33,253 nt of DNA from Leptospiraceae bacterium (lineage in GTDB: Bacteria; Spirochaetota; Leptospiria; Leptospirales; Leptospiraceae). This document shows, piece by piece, positions 1 through 33,253 of this stretch. The position numbers were made by a program, and so were the translations under genes. The stretch is taken from NCBI GenBank assembly GCA_016703885.1, contig JADJBD010000047.1, forward strand, positions 1 to 33,253, given 5' to 3'. The stretch's first letter is position 1; every line of letters begins with the position of its first letter. Below the pieces are notes generated by a model. The model was given only the letters and a program-made list of their open reading frames with translations. It was not told where the DNA came from and did not search any database.

Positions 1-2871
1 ATTTCAACACTCTAAAGAATAACCTCAATTTGGCGATCAATGCGATTAACCAACAAGCAGAGGCAGCAGTTGCCATTTCTGAAGGAAATCTCTCCGTCAA
101 AGTAAATGTTCGCTCTGAAAATGATTTACTCTCAAAGAGTTTAATCACTGTTATGCAAGTCTTGCAAGCCTTACAAAAAGAATTACTTCGTCTTACAGAA
201 GCCTCTAAAGCAGGTATGTTAGATGAAAGAGGAAAACCAGAACAATTCAAAGGTGCCTATGCAGATGTTTTAATTGGCGTAAACACAATGCTCGATGCGA
301 TTCTAATTCCAATAGGGGAAGGAAATAGAGTATTAAGACTTATTAGAGGCGGAAATCTTCGCGAAAGAATGGAGATTGAATGTCGTGGTGATCATCAAAA
401 GATGAAAGATGCAGTGAACGGGGTTCATTTGTGGCTAACAGATCTTGTAGCCTATGTAAATAAGATATCTAACGGTGATTTGACTGCAACAATGAACAAA
501 GCTTCCGAACAAGATCAAATTCATGAGTGGTTGATGCTAATGAAGAATAACATTGGCAACCTCGTCTCTGATGCTGGTATGCTTTCAAAAGCAGTAGAAG
601 GTAAGCTTGCAACACGTGCTGATGCTACTAAACACCAAGGTGACTATCGTAGAATTGTAGAAGGGGTTAATCAGACGTTAGACTCGGTAATCGGTCCTCT
701 TAACGTTGCTGCTGATTATGTTGATAAAATTTCTCGTGGAGCAATTCCTGCTAAGATTTCCGATACTTACAATGGTGACTTCAATGTTATCAAGAACAAC
801 TTAAACAATGCGATTGATAATGTAAACCCACTTGTGGCTGATGCTGGTATGCTCGCGAAAGCGGCTATTGAAGGTAAGCTCGCAACCCGTGCGGATGCAA
901 CTAAACACCAAGGCGACTATCGTAAGATTGTGGAAGGGGTTAATCAGACGTTAGACTCTGTGATTGGTCCTCTCAATGTTGCCGCGGATTATGTAGATAA
1001 AATTTCCCGTGGTGCTATTCCTGCTAAGATTACCGACACTTACAACGGTGACTTCAACGTTCTAAAGAACAACTTAAACAATGCAATTGATAATGTAAAC
1101 GCACTTGTGGCTGATGCCGGTATGCTTGCGAAAGCAGCAGTAGAAGGTAAACTTGCAACTCGTGCTGATGCTACTAAACACCAAGGCGACTATCGTAAGA
1201 TTGTAGAAGGGGTTAATCAGACGTTAGACTCTGTTATCAATCCTCTCAACGTTGCCGCTGATTATGTAGATAAAATTTCCCGCGGGGCTATTCCGACTAA
1301 GATTACGGATACTTACAATGGAGACTTCAACATACTAAAGAACAGCAAACAACGCAATTGATAATGTAAACGCTCTTGTGGCTGACGCTGGAATGCTTGC
1401 GAAAGCGGCTAGTGAAGGTAAGCTTGCAACACGTGCTGATGCAACCAAACACCAGGGAGACTATCGTAAGATCGTGGAAGGGGTTAATCAGACGTTAGAC
1501 TCTGTGATTGGTCCTCTCAATGTTGCGGCAGATTATGTAGATAGAATTTCTCGCGGTGCAATTCCAAATCAAATTACGGATACTTATAATGGGGATTTTA
1601 ACACTCTAAAGAACAACCTTAATCGTTGTATTGAAAACGTAAACGCACTTGTGGCTGATGCCGGTATGCTTGCGAAAGCGGCTATTGACGGTAAGCTTGC
1701 AACACGTGCCGATGCAACTAAACACCAAGGAGATTTCCGTAAGATTGTAGATGGGGTTAACAACACATTAGACGCTGTTATCCTTCCAGTGCAAGAAGCT
1801 TCCGCAGTGTTGCTAGAATTGTCTAAAGGAAACTTAAAAGCTAGAATGCTCGGTGATTACAAGGGAGATCATGCTACTATTAAGACTGCTCTTAATACAA
1901 GTCTGGTAACGTTAAACGATTATGTGGGGGAAATTTCGCGTATCCTCTCTTCTATGTCAGCAGGTGACTTAACTGTTGAAGTAACAAAAGACTTTATGGG
2001 AGATTTTGCTGAAATTAAAAAAGCGTTCACTCTCATCGTTGATTCCTTCAATGAACTCATTGGTGAAATCATCAACGCTTCGGATCAAATCCTCATTAGC
2101 TCTAGACAAGTGGCTGACTCCAGTCAATCTCTCTCGCAAGGATCAAACGAACAAGCTAGTAGCGTAGAAGAGATTACTTCAACGCTAGCAGTAATCGAAC
2201 TCAAAGCTAAGGATAATGCGAAGAATGCGAAGGACGCAAGTGACCAAGCTATGAACGTGAAAGAGCAAGCAGTCTCTAGTAATAACGAAATGAAGGGAAT
2301 GCTCAAAGCGATGGAAGAAATCAGTGAAACATCTGAAAACATTGCGAAGATTATAAAAGAAATAGATGCAATCGCATTCCAAACAAACATACTCGCATTA
2401 AATGCTGCAGTGGAAGCTGCCCGTGCAGGTCAACATGGAAAAGGCTTTAACGTGGTTGCCGAAGAAGTTCGTAACCTTGCTTCTCGTAGCGCGAATGCAG
2501 CGAAAGAAACCACTAAGATGATTGAAGGCTCGATTAAAACAGTTCGTTCTGGTATGGACATTGCGGGAAGAACTGCAAACGAATTGAATAAGATGACAGC
2601 TGGTGTTGTAGATGTTACAGATCTCGTGAAAGACATTGCGAGTGCATCGATTGAGCAGTCTTCGTCGGTAGTAGAGACTACAACCGGTATCAATCAGATT
2701 TCACAGGTGACAATGAGTGCAGCAGCTACAGCAGAAGAAAGCTCAGCAGCTAGTCTTGAGTTGTCTAGCCAAGCAGAAGCGTTCCAGGCAATGGTGAAGA
2801 GATTTCAAATTAAGAAATCAAAAGATGATAAAAGAAGAGACCAACAATCATGGCGGAAAGAAAAAAATTGA
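1..2871 (+). CDS. mcp: Methyl-accepting chemotaxis protein with poly-HAMP array, 5'-partial (continues upstream of the window). Frame is broken near 1341-1356, giving fragments 1..1361 and 1378..2871
   Basis: The frame is open from nt 3 ([10 protein letters not shown]...). Repeated ~90-aa HAMP-pair units ([86 protein letters not shown]). C-terminal MCP signalling domain [47 protein letters not shown]. In unit 3, the sequence aacaacttaaacaatgc found in sister units reads aacagcaaacaacgc, a net -2 nt, which gives a stop at 1359-1361. Confidence 0.8.
561..1790 (+). repeat. Tandem 270-273 bp coding repeats (HAMP-pair units) inside the MCP gene. Unit starts are at about 561, 831, 1104, 1375 and 1648, with more diverged units upstream
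   Basis: Direct comparison of the units shows roughly 85-90% nt identity and near-identical protein. Periods are 270, 273, 271 (the frameshifted unit) and 273 nt. Confidence 0.85.
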
Positions 2872-2893
2872 TTTGAAGTAAGGAGTAAAGTGT

Positions 2894-3382
2894 ATGGCAA
2901 CGACATTTGAAGAAGAACAATTAGAAGAATCTGAAGATACTATGGAGGATCTCTATATCATCTTTTTCATCGATGGAAGAGAGTATGGTATAGAGATTCG
3001 TTACTTGATTGAAATCATTGCGTTTCAACCTGTGACTTTTGTTCCAAACTTACCAGAATATGTTAAGGGAGTAATCAACCTTCGAGGGAAGATTATTCCC
3101 GTCATTGATGTGCGGCTAAGATTCGGTTTACCCAAGATAGACTATACCGAATTCACCTGCATATTGATTATGAATTTTAACAATCTAAGTGCAGGGCTTA
3201 TCGTCGATGGAGTCAAAGAAGTTTTAAAAATTCCAAAAGATTGTATTGAGCCCTCACCAGGATTTGAAGAAGCAAATATGGAGCGATTCGTCGATTCCAT
3301 TGGAAAGTCAGGCGATACATTGAAAATATTGATCGACCTGAATAAGTTTATTCATGAGAAAGATGTAAAAGGAATTGCTTAG
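2894..3382 (+). CDS. cheW: Chemotaxis coupling protein CheW
   Basis: 162 aa with a GGAG RBS 8 nt upstream. The CheW-like domain is recognisable (FFIDGREYGIEIRYLIEII, VINLRGKIIPVIDVR). It sits between the MCP and cheA. Confidence 0.85.
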   Translation: MATTFEEEQLEESEDTMEDLYIIFFIDGREYGIEIRYLIEIIAFQPVTFVPNLPEYVKGVINLRGKIIPVIDVRLRFGLPKIDYTEFTCILIMNFNNLSAGLIVDGVKEVLKIPKDCIEPSPGFEEANMERFVDSIGKSGDTLKILIDLNKFIHEKDVKGIA

Positions 3383-25963: not shown

Positions 25964-26310
25964 GGGGACGATTTGGTTTCGACTGTTGTAGACCTGGGTA
26001 CTGTGGCATGTAGAGGTGAGAGGCCGCCTTTAAAAACTCTCAAAAAACAAACGCTAACAACGAATTAGCTTTAGCAGCTTAATCTAAGCCGCTACGAGAA
26101 ACTGCTCTAACTTTCCGGTGGGCAGCGTATCGACTCTAAACGGAAAGTTGCACAAGTCGTTCTCCGACTTGGATTTGTGCAGAACCAAAGTTGGATAGGA
26201 GTGAATCACCTGTTTGTAGGTCAAGGCACTTCGAGATTTATTTACAAACTAAACATGTAGAGGCTTTACTTATGTGCAATAGGACCCGGGTTCGACCCCC
26301 GGCGTCTCCA
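25964..26310 (+). ncRNA. ssrA: tmRNA (SsrA), tag peptide reading frame 26053..26082 encoding ANNELALAA-stop
   Basis: 5' GGGGACGATTTGGTTTCGAC. 3' T-arm GGGTTCGACCCCC. Acceptor CGTCTCCA pairs with the 5' GGGGACG. Tag ORF GCT AAC AAC GAA TTA GCT TTA GCA GCT TAA. Confidence 0.9.
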
Positions 26311-26326
26311 TTTTCTACTTTCAAGT

Positions 26327-26390
26327 TAAACACGTAGCAGTTTTACTTCTGTGCAATAGACCAGGGTGCAACCCCCGGCGTCTCCATTTT
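26327..26390 (+). repeat. Degenerate direct duplicate of the tmRNA 3' end (about 80% identity, with an identical 20-bp core ACCCCCGGCGTCTCCATTTT)
   Basis: TAAACACGTAGCAGTTTTACTTCTGTGCAATAGACCAGGGTGCAACCCCCGGCGTCTCCATTTT matches tmRNA 26250-26314. The T-loop is mutated (GGGTTCGAC becomes GGGTGCAAC). Confidence 0.8.
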
Positions 26391-26433: not shown

Positions 26434-27045
26434 TTATAAACTAATCGATTGAATAAAATGACTTATAACATCTGGCATTAAGATAGCTGTAATCACCATA
26501 CCGGCTACTGCTCCATAAAAATGAGCTTCGTGGTTGATGTTGTCGTATTGATTTTCTGCGGAATAATAAGAGTATGCGAGATATAGAAATCCAAACACAA
26601 AGGCAGGAACTCCAATTGGAATAAACATGATACCGATCTTAGCCATTGGTTGAAATAGAATGAAACTAAAAATTACACCCGATACGCCGCCTGACGCACC
26701 GAGACTGCGATACACAGGATTCGTTTTATTTTTAAGAATACAGGTATACACGCTCGCCACTATAGAGCCAAAATAGACTAGAAAGAATTTGGAAGAACCA
26801 AGATAGCTTTCTAAGACAAAGGCAAACGAATAAAAAGAAAACATATTAAAAAGCAAATGCCACATATCCGCATGGATGAACGCATGAGAGAAAATACGAT
26901 AGTATTCTTTTTTGCGAATCATCCCATACGGATGAAGGATGAATCTTTCAATTAAAGATTCATCCTTGTAGAGAGCCCAGAGGCTAATTCCTATTGTCCC
27001 TATTAGGATAAAAGAAGCGACCGGGAATAGAATGAGATATCTCAA
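26434..27045 (-). CDS. Rhomboid family intramembrane serine protease
   Basis: Six TM helices. GASGGVSG (GxSG) and a downstream His in AHFYGAVAG. Confidence 0.8.
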   Translation of the reverse strand: MRYLILFPVASFILIGTIGISLWALYKDESLIERFILHPYGMIRKKEYYRIFSHAFIHADMWHLLFNMFSFYSFAFVLESYLGSSKFFLVYFGSIVASVYTCILKNKTNPVYRSLGASGGVSGVIFSFILFQPMAKIGIMFIPIGVPAFVFGFLYLAYSYYSAENQYDNINHEAHFYGAVAGMVITAILMPDVISHFIQSISL

Positions 27046-28202
27046 GCTTTAGACCTTTTACTAAAATATGCATCCATTTCAGCTATGAACGGATTGATGT
27101 TTTGTTCGTAAGCTAAGATTGCTTGAATTGCTTTTTCGTATACACTCATTACAAGAGCTTGCGCTGCATCACACATTTGTTCTTTACGGAAAGATTCTTC
27201 GTGTAAAGTTTCAGTGATAGAGCCGTCTGCTTTGAATGGAAGACAACCAAGTAGATTTTGCATTACAATCTTATCATCCCCCGCAACATGAGATGGATCA
27301 AAAATAGTAGGCAGTATTGTTTTTTTCTTAGCGTGTGTGATAACGTTAAAGTCAGGAGTATTACGGCAGTAACCTTCTTTGATGAATAGCGTCTTAACAC
27401 CGCGCTCGCAGAGGATAATATTGAGATTCCCCTGATTGGCAATGTATTCTGCTGCCGAGAACCACTCTTCTGCTTCGTTACCAAAACCACGTTTTAGAAT
27501 TACAGGTTTCATCGTCTTACCCACAGCTTCGAGTAATTCAAAGTCTTGAGCGTTTCGAGTTCCGATTTGAATCATGTCTGCATGTTTTGCAACTTCTTCT
27601 GCCATGGTATGATCCATAACTTCGGTTACGTATGGTAAGCCGGTCTCTTCTCTGACTCGGTCAAGCATTTTGATTCCTTCCCATCCAAGTCCACGCCAAT
27701 CAGTTGGTCTTGTTCTTGGTTTGAAGGCGCCACCACGAATAATCATTCTATCTAAGATTCCATATTTTTCACCGAGAGCTTTGGCTTGTTTTGCAATAGT
27801 AAGAGTTTGTTCCAGCGTTTGAGGAGAATCAGGTCCTACGATAAATACATGTTTGCCGTTTCCAATTTTACGAACGAAACCATCAGGACCTTTTACTTCT
27901 ACAATTCTATCTGGTCTATGAACGACTTCGCCTGCTTTTCCAGCGGCTACTCTAGCAATATTTTTATAAGGTGCCGATACATTCCAGATGCGGCTAACAC
28001 CTGCTAGTTCCTTTACGTAACCTGATTTTTCAGAGATTTTTCTTGTGTCTCCAATGAAATGAATGGTATCGCTTACTCCACCACCACGAATAATTTCTAC
28101 ATCATTGCCACACTCTGCGGCTAATTTCTTTATCTTTTCTTCTGTCTCGGAAAATCCCTTTTCTAATTCTACTATGTCCAATTTTTTACCCTCGAAATAC
28201 AA
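27042..28202 (-). CDS. 3-deoxy-7-phosphoheptulonate (DAHP) synthase, class I-beta, with N-terminal regulatory domain
   Basis: GAFKPRTRPTDWRGLG, IQIGTRNAQDFELLEAVGKTMKPVILKRG, ILCERG, DPSH. Note that VGPDS occupies the usual GPCS position. Confidence 0.8.
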   Translation of the reverse strand: MYFEGKKLDIVELEKGFSETEEKIKKLAAECGNDVEIIRGGGVSDTIHFIGDTRKISEKSGYVKELAGVSRIWNVSAPYKNIARVAAGKAGEVVHRPDRIVEVKGPDGFVRKIGNGKHVFIVGPDSPQTLEQTLTIAKQAKALGEKYGILDRMIIRGGAFKPRTRPTDWRGLGWEGIKMLDRVREETGLPYVTEVMDHTMAEEVAKHADMIQIGTRNAQDFELLEAVGKTMKPVILKRGFGNEAEEWFSAAEYIANQGNLNIILCERGVKTLFIKEGYCRNTPDFNVITHAKKKTILPTIFDPSHVAGDDKIVMQNLLGCLPFKADGSITETLHEESFRKEQMCDAAQALVMSVYEKAIQAILAYEQNINPFIAEMDAYFSKRSKA

Positions 28203-28257
28203 AGTCCTATCGAACGAGTAAAAGTCAAGAAATACTAGTAACTCACCTTTCAGAAGA

Positions 28258-28441
28258 TGAGTTTGGGGGTCTACCTTTGTTGAGTAGGTAAAGTTTTACC
28301 AACAAATTACAAAATCCTGTGAATCTTGTTAATCCTGTCCAAAAACGCTTCTAGACATGATTAACAAGATGGACAGTTTATAATTCATATTATTACAACA
28401 CTTAATTTTACCTACTTCTAACAGGTAGACCCTGAGTTTGG
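28258..28441. mobile_element. MITE-like insertion: 166-bp element (28267..28432) with 26-bp terminal inverted repeats, flanked by 9-bp direct repeats TGAGTTTGG
   Basis: TIR-L GGGTCTACCTTTGTTGAGTAGGTAAA. The reverse complement of TIR-R is GGGTCTACCTGTTAGAAGTAGGTAAA (21/26 match). TSDs at 28258-28266 and 28433-28441. An internal 12-bp hairpin (ATCTTGTTAATC / GATTAACAAGAT). No ORF. Confidence 0.55.
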
Positions 28442-28452
28442 ATTTAGGTGGA

Positions 28453-29583
28453 CTAAAGCCCGATGCTACGAGCGATAATTTCTTTCATGATTTCTGTTGT
28501 GCCGGCGTAGATAGTTTGGACTCTTGCATCTAGGTAAGCACGGGCGATTGGATATTCCATCATATATCCGTAGCCACCGAAGAATTGGAGGCAATCGTCT
28601 GTATGTCGCTTTTGCATTTCAGTAGAATACCATTTAGCCATAGAAGCTTCGCTTGTAGTAAGCTCACCCGCCATAATAGCATTAACCGCTTGGTCACAAA
28701 AAGAACGACAGACTTCAAGTTCTGTTTTCATCTCTGCCATCTTAAAACGAATGTGTTGGAAACTACCAATCTTTTTACCAAATGCTTCGCGCTCTTTGAG
28801 ATAACGAAGTGTAATCTCATGCACTGCTGCTGTTGCCTCTGTTGCGCCAACTGCAAGCACAAGTCTTTCCTTAGCAAGTTTAGTCATTAGGTAACGAAAG
28901 CCCTGCCCTTTTTTCCCGATTAGATTTTCTTTGGGAACTTTTACATCTACAAAGTGCAACTCAGATGTATCCTGGGCTTTTAATCCTATCTTTTCGAGAC
29001 GTCTGCCTCTTTCAAATCCAGGCATACCACGCTCTACCATTAAAAGACTCATCGCGTCATCGCTTGTCTTTGCGGCTACTATCACGTAATCTGCGAGTTG
29101 TCCGTTGCTGATAAAAGTCTTGGAGCCATTTAGAAGGAAGTGATCGTCTTTTTCAATTGCGGTGGTTCGAATTGCTTTTAAGTCAGATCCTGTTCCTGGC
29201 TCTGTCATAGCAATCGCTAGAATCTTTTCGCCAGACACACATCCGGGAAGCCATCTTTTCTTTTGCTCTTCGTTCGCGTATTCTGAGATATACGGCGCGA
29301 TAATATCATTGTGAAGAGAAACAAAAAAGCCACTGTTTCCAGCGCGAGAAGATTCTTCGATGATAATGAGGTTGTATAAAAAGTCTGCTCCACTCCCACC
29401 ATATTCCTCTGCGACATCAGGACAGAGTAAACCTGCCTCGCCTGCCTTACGCCAAATCTCCCTTGGAACGATTCCTACTTTTTCCCATTCTTCGTGGAAT
29501 GGCTTCACCTCAGTCTCAAAGAATTTGCGAGTAGTTTCTCTGAAACTGTTGTGCTCTTCTGTGAAAGGAAGACTTCGTTTCAC
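28453..29583 (-). CDS. Acyl-CoA dehydrogenase
   Basis: AMTEPGTGSDL, YLMTKLAKERL, and a C-terminal catalytic region ending EYPIARAYLDARVQTIYAGTTEIM. Confidence 0.85.
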   Translation of the reverse strand: MKRSLPFTEEHNSFRETTRKFFETEVKPFHEEWEKVGIVPREIWRKAGEAGLLCPDVAEEYGGSGADFLYNLIIIEESSRAGNSGFFVSLHNDIIAPYISEYANEEQKKRWLPGCVSGEKILAIAMTEPGTGSDLKAIRTTAIEKDDHFLLNGSKTFISNGQLADYVIVAAKTSDDAMSLLMVERGMPGFERGRRLEKIGLKAQDTSELHFVDVKVPKENLIGKKGQGFRYLMTKLAKERLVLAVGATEATAAVHEITLRYLKEREAFGKKIGSFQHIRFKMAEMKTELEVCRSFCDQAVNAIMAGELTTSEASMAKWYSTEMQKRHTDDCLQFFGGYGYMMEYPIARAYLDARVQTIYAGTTEIMKEIIARSIGL

Positions 29584-30305: not shown

Positions 30306-31844
30306 CTACTCACTCCCAAATTTCTCAAGAATATATTCCCCGATATTACGATCTTTGAACTCAACTCCGACTAGATAAATATCTTTGCCTTTGTTTAAAT
30401 ACTTTTCGTAATACTTCTTGGTTTTGATTTGGGCAAGGGCTTCTTCTTTTGTGCCGCTTAGTTTGAATTCAAAAATATAAATGGAATTGCTTTCGACTAC
30501 TGCATCTACTCGACCAAGATTTGTTTTCACTTCCGTTCGTATCTTAAATCCCAACAAGGTGAATGTAAGATAGAATAGAGTTTGGTAGTATTTCTCTTGC
30601 GGTATATGAAGATCATATTCTATCTTAACAAATATTTTTCGTAAATAGGAAATGCAGGCTTCTAGATCATCGACTGCCAATGCATCTAAAATTTCATAAA
30701 GTATAGAATCAGAAAAATCCTTGTTTCCAAGCTTGCGAGTGAAGTATCCAAGAAAAGCATTCTTAACTTCATAATTCGGAAAATCTAATGTAAAAAGTTT
30801 TCTCTCTGCATTGTAATCCTTGATTGTCAAATACCCTGTCTGAACCAAAAGAGGCGTTAGGCTTAAGTCATCCACTTCATAACTTGAAAAGTTTAAGGCA
30901 TCTGTTTTAATTGGAATTTCTATGATGTCATAGTTATTTTTTAAAATTAATTTAACAAGAAACTCAGGTGTGCCTGTCTCAAACCAATGGTGTTCAAAAC
31001 TTTTCTTTTCAAATGTAAGTAATGTGGAAAAAGGATTGTAAACAGAAATCCCTTTAGGAGAGAAACGATAGCCGTTATACCACAGCCGAATTTTTTCCAA
31101 GAGGTTAACTTCACTTACACCTTCTTCCTTTGCAAATGCTGAAATATAATCTGGAAAATAATTAGTTAATTCTTGTTCTGTAATCCCAATTAAATCAGAA
31201 TAAGCATTATCGAGGGTAATATCAATTAGGTGATTCAAATTGCTAAATACTCCCGCCTTCGAAAACTTACTAACTCCTGTCAGAAGCAGGAATCGAATAT
31301 ACTCATCATTACCCTTTAATACGGTGAAAAATCCTTTCATCACCTCGCGCATTTGAAGCGCAAGCTCTGTATCTTCTAGATGATCGATGATCGGTTTGTC
31401 GTATTCGTCAATTAGGATAACAACTTTTTCTGTCGCTCCTAGTTTCATGATCAGTTCTTCAAATCGTTCAAAGTATTCCTTCTTGCTTAACTGAATAGAA
31501 TGCGCTTCTGCAATATAATCCAATTGATTATTAATAAATCCTATCAAAACCTTTGGCTCATTTGCTTTCTGTTTGCTGAAATCAAATCGTATGACTGGAT
31601 GCTTCTTCCATTTGTATTCCGAATTGTAAATCCAAAGTCCCTGAAAGAGTTCTTTGTTTCCAAGAAAAATTTCTTCGAGTGTAGAAAGAGTAAGACTCTT
31701 TCCAAATCTGCGCGGGCGAGATAGAAAGTAAGCTCCGGCAGGATTTTTGATCATCTGATATATATTTTGTGTTTTGTCTATGTATAGATAATTTCCCTCT
31801 ATGAGTTTTCGGAAAGTTTGAATTCCTATCGGAAGCGGTTTCAT
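30306..31844 (-). CDS. AAA-ATPase-like domain (PF09820-type) protein with C-terminal PD-(D/E)xK nuclease-like domain (DUF1703-type)
   Basis: Characteristic N-terminus LPIGIQTFRKLIEGNYLYIDKT...FLSRPRRFGKSLTLSTLEEIF. Walker B ILIDEYD. C-terminal GRVDAVVE...YIFEFK (D..E.K). Confidence 0.75.
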   Translation of the reverse strand: MKPLPIGIQTFRKLIEGNYLYIDKTQNIYQMIKNPAGAYFLSRPRRFGKSLTLSTLEEIFLGNKELFQGLWIYNSEYKWKKHPVIRFDFSKQKANEPKVLIGFINNQLDYIAEAHSIQLSKKEYFERFEELIMKLGATEKVVILIDEYDKPIIDHLEDTELALQMREVMKGFFTVLKGNDEYIRFLLLTGVSKFSKAGVFSNLNHLIDITLDNAYSDLIGITEQELTNYFPDYISAFAKEEGVSEVNLLEKIRLWYNGYRFSPKGISVYNPFSTLLTFEKKSFEHHWFETGTPEFLVKLILKNNYDIIEIPIKTDALNFSSYEVDDLSLTPLLVQTGYLTIKDYNAERKLFTLDFPNYEVKNAFLGYFTRKLGNKDFSDSILYEILDALAVDDLEACISYLRKIFVKIEYDLHIPQEKYYQTLFYLTFTLLGFKIRTEVKTNLGRVDAVVESNSIYIFEFKLSGTKEEALAQIKTKKYYEKYLNKGKDIYLVGVEFKDRNIGEYILEKFGSE

Positions 31845-31977: not shown

Positions 31978-32673
31978 CTACGGTCCAGACACACAACGCA
32001 CATATTTACTAGTACCCTTCGTGTTGCTGTCCACACGGCTATCCAAGAAATCGACAAACCACGCGTCGCTAGTAGGCGACGCAGTAGTAGAACTCGAATA
32101 CTTGGTGGCAACTGTATTCGGAAATAAAGTATTAATGGAAGGACTTGGAGAGCCTCCACAATCTGCTCCATCGTTTGGCATTGTTGTTGTAGTGTTGCAT
32201 TCAATTAGCAATTTTAATTCATTTTTAGTAGGAACCCGCCAGTTGGTTTTACCGTAAGTCCCTGCACCTGCGTTTAAACCATTGCAAGCTGTATACGCAC
32301 TACTTGTGCCAGTCCCATTTAGGAGACCAGTTCCTGCATCATTGCAAGATTGGTCACCTATATTACAGTATTGAACTGTAGTTGCTCCGTAAGCTGTTGC
32401 AGTGCCAGTTCCTGTGCAATCATTCGTGGATGATTTCCATGTTTGTCCATGACTACATTTCATCCAAGTCAGAGTCTGTGCCGTGTAGGTTTGTCCGCCA
32501 AACGTTCCAGCAGTGACTGCCAATTGAACAGTTCCATTATTATTATCACTAAAGACTCCCCAATTTCGCGTTATTGGAACGCTACATACCAAAGTTACAT
32601 TTGTTACATTTGCAGTTGCGGTTCCTATGCCACTTGTCACTGTGCAAATTAATCCAGTTGGTTGTGTTTTCAC
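31978..32673 (-). CDS. DUF1566 (Lcl C-terminal domain) family protein. This is the intact 3' portion of a longer gene whose upstream part is frame-disrupted
   Basis: C-terminal ...SSSTTASPTSDAWFVDFLDSRVDSNTKGTSKYVRCVSGP, typical of DUF1566. The domain-boundary motif KTQPTGLICTVTSGIGTATANVTNVTLVC. The ORF-track start is a GTG immediately after an in-frame stop. Confidence 0.7.
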   Translation of the reverse strand: MKTQPTGLICTVTSGIGTATANVTNVTLVCSVPITRNWGVFSDNNNGTVQLAVTAGTFGGQTYTAQTLTWMKCSHGQTWKSSTNDCTGTGTATAYGATTVQYCNIGDQSCNDAGTGLLNGTGTSSAYTACNGLNAGAGTYGKTNWRVPTKNELKLLIECNTTTTMPNDGADCGGSPSPSINTLFPNTVATKYSSSTTASPTSDAWFVDFLDSRVDSNTKGTSKYVRCVSGP

Positions 32674-33253
32674 GGTTACTGATACGCGCGTTCAGTTGCT
32701 ATCGAAATACTAAATGTGAAGGGATTGTCCGCACCGCTGCTACTGTCGAATCGTTACTGCATTGTTTTGCAATACCAAAAGCCCGTTGCTGTGGTCCGTG
32801 ATCCGTTCCACCGGATTGTAAATGCGACTGCAGCACAGGTAGTATCTGGAGTTATCCGCGTTTCTGGTTGCCGTCCCTGTTCACGCTGAGGCGTGCGGGT
32901 TAATCCACGGTTGGTTGTGTTTTCGCGGTTACTGCATGGGCTGTTCCTGTTGCTATCGCTGGCCGCTAAATGTGAAGCTGAGTCTCACCGCGCTACTGTT
33001 AAATCGTTACCTGCGTTGTTTTGCAATACCGAGCCCGTTGCTGTGAGTCCCGTAATCGTTCCACCGATTGTATAGGTTGCTGCTGTTCCTGTGCCGCCGG
33101 TTGCCGTTGCCTTTGTTGTTGTTCCACTTCTCTGGAGGCAAGGTGCTGCCGCCGCAGACAGGAGGTTTTATCATCCTTTTTTCTCCTGACAATTTACAAA
33201 TGTCAAAGTCGCAACTAGTGTGATTACCGTAAGACCCATTCCATCCATAGACT
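32674..33253 (-). pseudogene. Frameshifted, GC-rich 5' portion of the DUF1566-family gene. It contains two ~250-bp tandem repeat units (about 32655-32820 and 32905-33070) encoding Thr/Gly/Ala-rich domains (..TYTIGGTITGLTATGSVLQNNAGNDLTV..)
   Basis: The best protein-like frame switches at least three times. The two repeat units differ by single-nt indels. A start with an AGGAG RBS lies at about 33189 on the minus strand (ATGATAAAACCT), but the frame is also open to the window end. Confidence 0.35.

Follow-up and report, generated by a model that had tools for sequence, protein, structure and literature searches.

A strain-polymorphic, MITE-like foldback element upstream of the DAHP synthase gene in an uncultured Leptospiraceae species

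We analyzed a contig of 33,253 nucleotides from a Leptospiraceae bacterium (JADJBD010000047.1, assembly GCA_016703885.1; hereafter the window), and found that the spacer between its genes for an acyl-CoA dehydrogenase (ACAD) and for DAHP synthase carries a foldback element of 166 nt that some strains of the species possess and others lack. With moderate confidence, we interpret it as a non-autonomous transposable element of the miniature inverted-repeat type (MITE), present in few copies and probably no longer active, or as the relic of one. This reading explains the data best because it accounts jointly for inverted repeats flanked by a 9-bp direct repeat, ends that are conserved around free interiors, polymorphism among strains, the foldback structure and dimensions typical of MITEs. 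The finding is of modest significance: a clear, population-polymorphic relic of a small foldback transposon in an uncultured Leptospiraceae of activated sludge.

Anatomy and significance of the element

The gene order, all on the minus strand, is ACAD, element, DAHP synthase (Table 1). A first-pass annotation, made from the letters of the window, had correctly placed the element between the ACAD stop and the DAHP synthase start on the strand shared by both genes. The 9-bp direct repeats that it reported are present as two copies of TGAGTTTGG, 100% identical, and both abut the edges of the element exactly. The body between them is AT-rich, intergenic and, as had been stated, devoid of open reading frames (ORFs): our check of 28267-28432 found none of at least 20 aa lying entirely inside it. 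The inverted ends, described earlier as 26 bp with 21/26 positions identical, extend to 29 nt with 79% complementarity, and their outermost 10 nt (GGGTCTACCT) match perfectly. The DAHP-side terminus can itself be read as a small stem-loop (TACCT...AGGTA). The internal 12-bp hairpin of the annotation is likewise real, and proves to be the perfect core (ATCTTGTTAATC/GATTAACAAGAT) at the centre of a larger hairpin, whose 28-nt arms are 82% complementary. Over its full length, each half of the element repeats the other in inverted form, and the whole is one long imperfect foldback.

The predicted RNA fold of the 221-nt region has an energy of -79.8 kcal/mol, versus -43.8 +/- 4.4 kcal/mol for dinucleotide shuffles (n = 200; z = -8.24), and not one of the 200 shuffles was as good as the native region. 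The 166-nt element folded alone reaches -64.5 kcal/mol.

Perfect 10-mer inverted pairs 50-400 nt apart number 42 in the window, and a single one of them is abutted by a 9-nt direct repeat. As a test of chance we generated 300 first-order Markov resamples of the window, which contained 7,990 such pairs. An abutting direct repeat of at least 8 nt appeared in none of the 300, and the longest, seen once, measured 7 nt. Since the 9-nt repeat is thus unmatched in the resamples, the combination of terminal inverted repeat and direct repeat is real.

Elsewhere in the window, the sole other inverted pair with an abutting repeat of at least 5 nt is a 56-nt mini-palindrome at 14268-14335 (CGTAACTACTCA...TGAGTAGTTACG), which lies in the spacer of a divergent gene pair and is abutted by a 6-nt direct repeat (TCTTTC). 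It could be due to chance, given that abutting repeats of at least 6 nt arose in 4/300 resamples.

Filled and empty alleles at a rearranged junction

Contigs for comparison were obtained through exact-protein matches in metagenome-assembled genomes of uncultured Leptospiraceae and in metagenomes of wastewater and activated sludge; the sources were GCA_020049755.1 (L003), GCA_016720625.1, GCA_016708435.1 and several ENA and Logan contigs. Those of the same species are 95-99% identical to the window. We measured the spacer from the ACAD stop codon to the conserved TTACTAGT. It is 211 nt long in the window, and 219 nt, that is, filled with 8 further nt, in L003, L004/L011, L005, L008 and L013, a class that also takes in L012 and L014, which begin inside the element. 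In L001/L009 it is 177 nt long, filled but with the ACAD-proximal arm scrambled, and in L002/L010, L007 and L015 it is empty, at 17 nt. Counting L001 and L009, L004 and L011, and L002 and L010 as one each, there are nine distinct filled contigs, the window included, and three distinct empty ones. The filled allele reads TAG-TCCACCTAAAT-CCAAACTCA-(element)-CCAAACTCA-TCTTCTGAAAGGTGAG-TTACTAGT, and the empty allele TAG-TTGACGTCGGTTCTAAT-TTACTAGT.

The orientation of the element is identical in 9/9 filled contigs. Filled and empty states were each found together with both the TTG-start and the ATG-start haplotype of the DAHP synthase gene, about 60 nt away, which argues that the spacer alleles are shuffled by recombination in the population. 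The element is dispensable and polymorphic, so a fixed native untranslated region is ruled out, as the first-pass annotation had supposed when it preferred an insertion: L002/L010, L007 and L015 belong to the same species and do without the element.

The filled alleles also differ among themselves. The 174-nt element of other strains (L004-type) is a more symmetric foldback than the window copy (-67.6 vs -64.5 kcal/mol), from which we infer that the window copy carries an 8-nt deletion in its ACAD-proximal arm. The scrambled-arm allele of L001/L009 folds at only -30.6 kcal/mol, and may reflect either real decay or an assembly error in the hairpin region.

Assemblies tend to break at this locus. 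The Logan contigs L012 and L014 start within the terminal repeat, and L003 (GCA_020049755.1 JAHZTO010009344.1) has, at ~2880-3000, right after the element, a scaffold gap (a run of N) and a duplicated DAHP synthase 5' region. The element accounts for these breaks, and it can be used as a strain marker. The species also provides two natural alleles that could serve in tests of polarity, one with and one without a hairpin of ~80 bp in the interval that separates a dehydrogenase gene from the first gene of aromatic amino-acid synthesis.

In lineages whose ACAD is 96%, 94% or 87% identical, homology ends exactly at the ACAD stop codon, and the gene that follows differs from lineage to lineage (PNP_UDP_1, a chemoreceptor, an RND adaptor or a WG_beta_rep protein). 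Genes for Uma2, a hydrolase and galT precede DAHP synthase in the sister species (UBA2033, L006; Logan contig L017). These different neighbours mark the junction of ACAD and DAHP synthase as a species-specific rearrangement point.

Across loci L026-L039, the pair of thioredoxin and ACAD genes is conserved, and the DNA after the ACAD stop differs in every related lineage. It varies even among contigs with the same 96%-identical ACAD protein; the site is a recurrent synteny breakpoint.

Recurrence of the termini and origin of the element

We searched for the termini with a pattern of 20 specified bases (GGGTCTACCTNTNNNNAGTAGGTAAA), which in the window matches the two ends of the element only. 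Among representative genomes (one for each of 185,579 species) the pattern matched once, in Leptospiraceae bacterium UBA2033; in the JGI metagenomes it matched once, in contig Ga0137439_1002339 (L016); in viral contigs there were 0 matches. A blastn search of the PLSDB plasmids with the 211-nt block returned only a 38-nt chance match in Spirosoma, and a literature search for the terminal sequence only unrelated eukaryotic primers.

The UBA2033 terminus is identical to the ACAD-side terminus at 28/29 positions, including those that the pattern leaves unspecified. It lies at an unrelated locus (L006, DDBL01000193.1), ~380 nt downstream of galT and at the end of the contig, which stops 56 nt into the element, after a GAGGA-like motif (last bases ...TAAGAGGAAAAGAAAA). 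These bases resemble a ribosome-binding site, and the copy might be one end of a full autonomous insertion sequence (IS); we treat this as only a lead. A pair of filled and empty alleles at this second locus, sought via the galT neighbour, was not recovered. The closest galT contig, L017, has a tmRNA downstream and no element, and more distant galT contigs have other neighbours; the tmRNA after galT in L017 indicates that the region has been rearranged.

The match in L016 marks the right-hand terminus of another long foldback, of ~175 nt (Table 1), whose interior is unrelated. Its arms have in common GGAACGCG(G)CGCCA(A/G)GGCTAT, and it is interrupted by a group II intron (Rfam Intron_gpII, 55.5 bits), which starts with GTGCGCC at 158 and includes a reverse transcriptase (RT) ORF at 589-1974 and domain V/VI at 2015-2091. 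With the intron removed, the foldback reaches -65 to -69 kcal/mol. The three elements, in the window, UBA2033 and L016, thus have unrelated interiors and share only their termini, of ~27 nt. Since these termini recur at unrelated loci, they define a real but very sparse family. Conserved ends around variable interiors show the pattern of a family that would be recognised by a transposase.

Relatives of the L016 intron were tried as a guide to more copies of the element, and rejected. Those with a 91%-identical RT (protein P0242) are multi-copy, on at least 52 contigs, and sit (L040, L041, L044, L046-L048) in another palindromic repeat, within its 3' arm (TTGCCACAGAGGCAC...GTGCCTCTG/TGGCAA). 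As related introns occupy another palindrome, they seek long hairpins in general, not this element family. These metagenomes, then, hold a second palindromic repeat family (TTGCCACAGAGGCAC...GTGCCTCTG).

The element has many of the features by which MITEs are recognised: 166 nt of non-coding DNA, inverted repeats of 26-29 nt, an abutting 9-bp duplication, an AT-rich intergenic setting and a stable stem-loop. Its length falls within the MITE size range of ~50-800 bp (PMC11602168), and the Leptospirales have been reported to be unusually rich in MITEs, among the most MITE-rich of all orders (PMC11602168). By description, not by sequence, it can be likened to QMITE2 of Coxiella burnetii, which is non-coding, AT-rich and intergenic, has similar dimensions (direct repeats of 7-9 bp, terminal repeats of 23-29 bp, a core of 113-145 bp) and yields a transcript that forms one long stable hairpin (PMC10969869). 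QMITE2, however, is multi-copy in its host, whereas here we see one copy in the host species and two related termini in public data. The element also resembles the Correia elements of Neisseria and the enterobacterial ERIC elements, imperfect palindromes of ~100-170 nt that lie between co-transcribed genes and are polymorphic among strains (PMC10969869). It differs from both in its 9-bp direct repeat, and no outward promoter was detected in it. Correia elements duplicate TA and ERIC elements are not known to make a duplication of 9 bp; the copies of either kind number in the tens to hundreds. The element is, in sum, a new and sparse addition to the known MITE-like foldback elements.

Inverted repeats with a perfect abutting 9-bp duplication would be the footprint of insertion by a DDE transposase, and a history of the locus can be proposed on this basis. 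A DDE-type transposase, acting in trans, would have recognised termini of the form GGGTCTACCT-N6-AGTAGGTAAA and inserted a foldback of ~170 nt into the short spacer behind the ACAD gene, in one lineage of this species, duplicating 9 bp of the target (CCAAACTCA on the coding strand). Later, the filled allele and an older, unrelated empty spacer allele would have been shuffled among strains by homologous recombination, and the window copy would have begun to decay through the 8-nt deletion in one arm. The termini provide a lead toward an IS with GGGTCTACCT... ends.

Several observations weigh against a transposable origin, and they qualify the signature of a non-autonomous transposon that the first-pass annotation had proposed: the anatomy, the strain polymorphism and the termini at two unrelated loci (L006, L016) speak for it, but no partner transposase gene was found in the window. 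In the fetched loci we found no IS with the ends of the element, the sole IS there being an IS66 with ends GTAATCGC. The annotation had also looked to further copies in the host; we found no second copy in the 33-kb window, and no further copy, within 3-4 mismatches, in ~330 kb of largely redundant fetched loci, barring L006 and L016; some described MITE families are present just once in a genome (PMC10969869). Public collections hold almost no match to the terminal pattern (one in genomes, one in metagenomes, none in viral contigs), and with 20 specified bases about one match per large collection is expected by chance. The L016 foldback is not flanked by a clean target duplication (TGTAAAACT vs AATGTAAGT). 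The predicted empty site with a single TGAGTTTGG, the mark of a MITE insertion in a relative, is absent: the empty alleles hold 17 unrelated nt (TTGACGTCGGTTCTAAT) in place of the whole 211-nt block, which comprises the element, both copies of the direct repeat and 27 further nt. Nor was a pre-insertion allele recovered through the ACAD homologues of related lineages, where it is not recoverable because homology with every one of them stops at the ACAD stop codon.

The last two points suit another explanation, which we consider unlikely and rank first among the rivals. The 211-nt block would then not itself be mobile: at a rearrangement junction, a fast-evolving spacer would exist as two old alleles without homology to each other, one of them the block; homologous recombination in the flanking genes would swap the alleles, and the palindrome and direct repeat would be by-products of local inverted duplication or repair. 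Filled and empty alleles indeed differ by more than an element and its duplication (211 nt vs 17 nt), both occur on both DAHP start-codon haplotypes, the ACAD stop is a synteny breakpoint with a different downstream gene in each of the 96%, 94% and 87% lineages, the sister species has Uma2, hydrolase and galT genes in front of DAHP synthase instead, and the searched loci of the host yielded no other copy. Such an exchange of alleles leaves unexplained, however, why the same 29-nt terminus (28/29) stands at an unrelated locus in another species, why it also bounds a second foldback with an unrelated interior, and why a perfect 9-nt direct repeat sits flush against the outer ends of the inverted repeats. 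On these grounds we prefer the MITE-like reading.

A bolder extension of that reading must be judged doubtful at best. It supposes that the GGGTCTACCT-N6-AGTAGGTAAA stem-loop marks an undescribed Leptospiraceae family of ~170-nt foldbacks, with ends recognised by an enzyme, with long hairpins on which hairpin-seeking group II introns land (as in L016), and acting here as a naturally segregating insulator or processing site that would alter DAHP synthase output from read-through of the operon upstream.

It is improbable that the element is instead a REPIN-like doublet, that is, two inverted REP-type stem-loops (GTAG/CTAC) spread by RAYT (a Y1 HUH enzyme) or by a comparable enzyme that recognises hairpins, and not by a DDE transposase. 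Like a REPIN, it consists of two inverted copies of a short stem-loop motif (TACCT-N-AGGTA, or CTAC...GTAG) that together form a long hairpin in intergenic DNA, and its conserved part is the 26-29-nt motif only, with differing interiors. REP and REPIN elements typically number tens to hundreds per genome, and are not known to duplicate their target. Here, by contrast, a perfect 9-bp direct repeat abuts the ends, the motif is very rare in public collections and its copy number very low, and no Y1 transposase or RAYT gene was found in the window.

Derivation from a Tn3-family transposon, as a Tn3-derived inverted-repeat miniature element (TIME), is formally possible and fits worse; we hold it to be very improbable. 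If both boundaries are moved 2 nt outwards, the ends become CAGGGTCT and GGGGGTCT and a 5-bp direct repeat, AAACT, is left as the true duplication, an allowed alternative reading. The DAHP-side end then reads GGGGGTCTACC, which we take to resemble the GGGGTC start of Tn3-family inverted repeats. The consensus of that family has repeats of ~38 bp starting with GGGG, an inner conserved ACGYTAAG and a 5-bp duplication. The other end, however, reads CAGGGTCT, so that GGGG starts one end only; the four extra matching bases of the 9-nt repeat would be a coincidence of about 1 in 256; and the similarity of the repeats fades after ~29 nt, not 38, with the inner ACGYTAAG absent.

Equally hard to credit is a regulatory structure native to the locus, be it an invertible promoter switch, an aromatic amino-acid attenuator or riboswitch, or the intrinsic terminator of ACAD. 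The position between two co-oriented genes and directly upstream of DAHP synthase, the very stable RNA hairpin and a weak terminator-like hairpin at 28263-28240 on the minus strand could point to it, but it fails on the absence of the element from same-species strains with an identical DAHP protein, its single orientation in all nine filled contigs, the lack of a site-specific recombinase in the window, of a promoter-like site in the promoter scan and of any Rfam match above noise, and the location of the cross-species conserved DAHP leader outside the element.

Neighbouring genes, the DAHP leader and possible effects

Table 1. Coordinates of the features at the ACAD-DAHP synthase locus of the window, and of the second foldback in contig L016
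Feature	Position	Strand	Description
Strain-variable block	28242-28452	-	211 nt: 11 nt, direct repeat, element, direct repeat, 16 nt
Direct repeat, DAHP-proximal copy	28258-28266		TGAGTTTGG, 9 bp, repeat family D4; putative target-site duplication
Direct repeat, ACAD-proximal copy	28433-28441		TGAGTTTGG, 9 bp, repeat family D4
Element body	28267-28432	unassigned	166 nt; ORF-less foldback, MITE-like insertion
Terminal inverted repeat, DAHP side	28267-28295	+	GGGTCTACCTTTGTTGAGTAGGTAAAGTT; inverted pair I1
Terminal inverted repeat, ACAD side	28404-28432	-	GGGTCTACCTGTTAGAAGTAGGTAAAATT
Central hairpin	28317-28376		arms 28317-28344 and 28349-28376, loop 4 nt; inverted pair I2
Small 10-bp hairpin	28240-28263	-	AACTCATCTT-CTGA-AAGGTGAGTT; inverted pair I6
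DAHP synthase leader	28182-28234	-	TTCTTGACT...GAGGGTAAAAAA; outside the element, intact in every allele
DAHP synthase, type I-beta	27042-28181	-	379 aa, TTG start; downstream neighbour of the element
Acyl-CoA dehydrogenase (ACAD)	28453-29583	-	376 aa; upstream neighbour of the element
Second foldback	50-2161 of JGI Ga0137439_1002339 (L016)		left arm 50-157, right arm ~2095-2161

The ACAD stop codon occupies 28453-28455, and 11 nt separate it from the ACAD-proximal direct repeat. On the other side, the distance of 65 bp that the first-pass annotation gave between the insertion and the DAHP synthase start needs correction. The longest DAHP ORF would begin at 28202; the gene calls, a GAGGG ribosome-binding site and the ATG that other strains have at this position all support the start at 28181, and from there to the direct repeat we count 76 nt. 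The start codon itself is TTG in the window strain (28179-28181); the sister species and other strains have ATG, from which it follows that the TTG allele is derived. It sits in a haplotype with three differences, including a 1-nt indel; the comparison took in L004, L008 and L015.

The element and the variable block lie just upstream of the DAHP leader, which filled and empty alleles both keep. In the sister species these ~53 nt ahead of the start codon match at 100%, whereas the region from DAHP synthase to the rhomboid gene is 87% identical overall. Such conservation suggests a candidate promoter or operator in the leader (TTCTTGACTTTTACTCGTTCGATAGGACTTTGTATTTCGAGGGTAAAAAA, 28182-28234, minus strand); a simple sigma-70 scan gave no call there. 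The small, weakly terminator-like hairpin at the edge of the block overlaps the DAHP-proximal direct repeat and is missing, with the rest of the block, from the empty alleles.

That the insertion would supply or disrupt promoter or attenuator signals of DAHP synthase, as had been proposed, is not borne out by these data. The leader is intact and fully conserved, the promoter scan found no promoter-like site in or around the element, and Rfam returned no family for 28150-28500, only generic microRNA-precursor hairpin models at 16-20 bits, versus thresholds of 39-230. Over the whole window, the tmRNA alone reaches its Rfam gathering score. If ACAD and DAHP synthase are co-transcribed, a predicted RNA hairpin of ~80 bp and the small terminator-like hairpin (28263-28240) would lie between them. 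By analogy with Correia and ERIC elements, the closest functional parallel, whose RNA hairpins can be cut by RNase III or RNase E or can alter transcript levels (PMC10969869), these hairpins could lower or process read-through instead of acting as a promoter. Existing knowledge of the regulation of DAHP synthase is not changed by these results.

Past DAHP synthase lie a rhomboid protease gene and then, on the plus strand, the tmRNA gene (25964-26313; tag peptide ANNELALAA; Rfam 158.8 bits). The 3' terminal 32 nt of the tmRNA recur 76 nt downstream (26359-26390) with 91% identity, a repeat that looks like a putative att-site remnant of an element formerly integrated at the tmRNA.

On the other side of the locus, a predicted AAA-ATPase/PD-(D/E)XK gene (PDDEXK_9; 30306-31844, minus strand) adjoins the thioredoxin-ACAD pair. 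In L001, a gene of PDDEXK_2 (Rpn/YhgA-like putative transposase family) is found further upstream of the ACAD locus, at 1300-1812, and the neighbourhoods of the PDDEXK genes vary between strains. The GC-richer end of the window (46% GC) has two pairs of 20-25-nt repeats, 95-96% identical and spaced by ~254 nt, at 32657-33030, within and upstream of an ORF with an Lcl_C domain (31978-32673).

Two further features lie far from the element. An ORF of 830 aa at 8056-10548 (plus strand) matches the shoulder domain of the Major Vault Protein (PF11978, E = 6e-24) as well as a vault repeat domain (PF17795); this bacterial vault-protein-like ORF adjoins chemotaxis and histidine-kinase genes. At 530-1919, five tandem repeats of ~273 nt, 63-85% identical, code for repeated HAMP_2 domains, and fall in what appear to be the two halves (30-1361 and 1378-2871, plus strand) of a poly-HAMP chemoreceptor at 30-2871.

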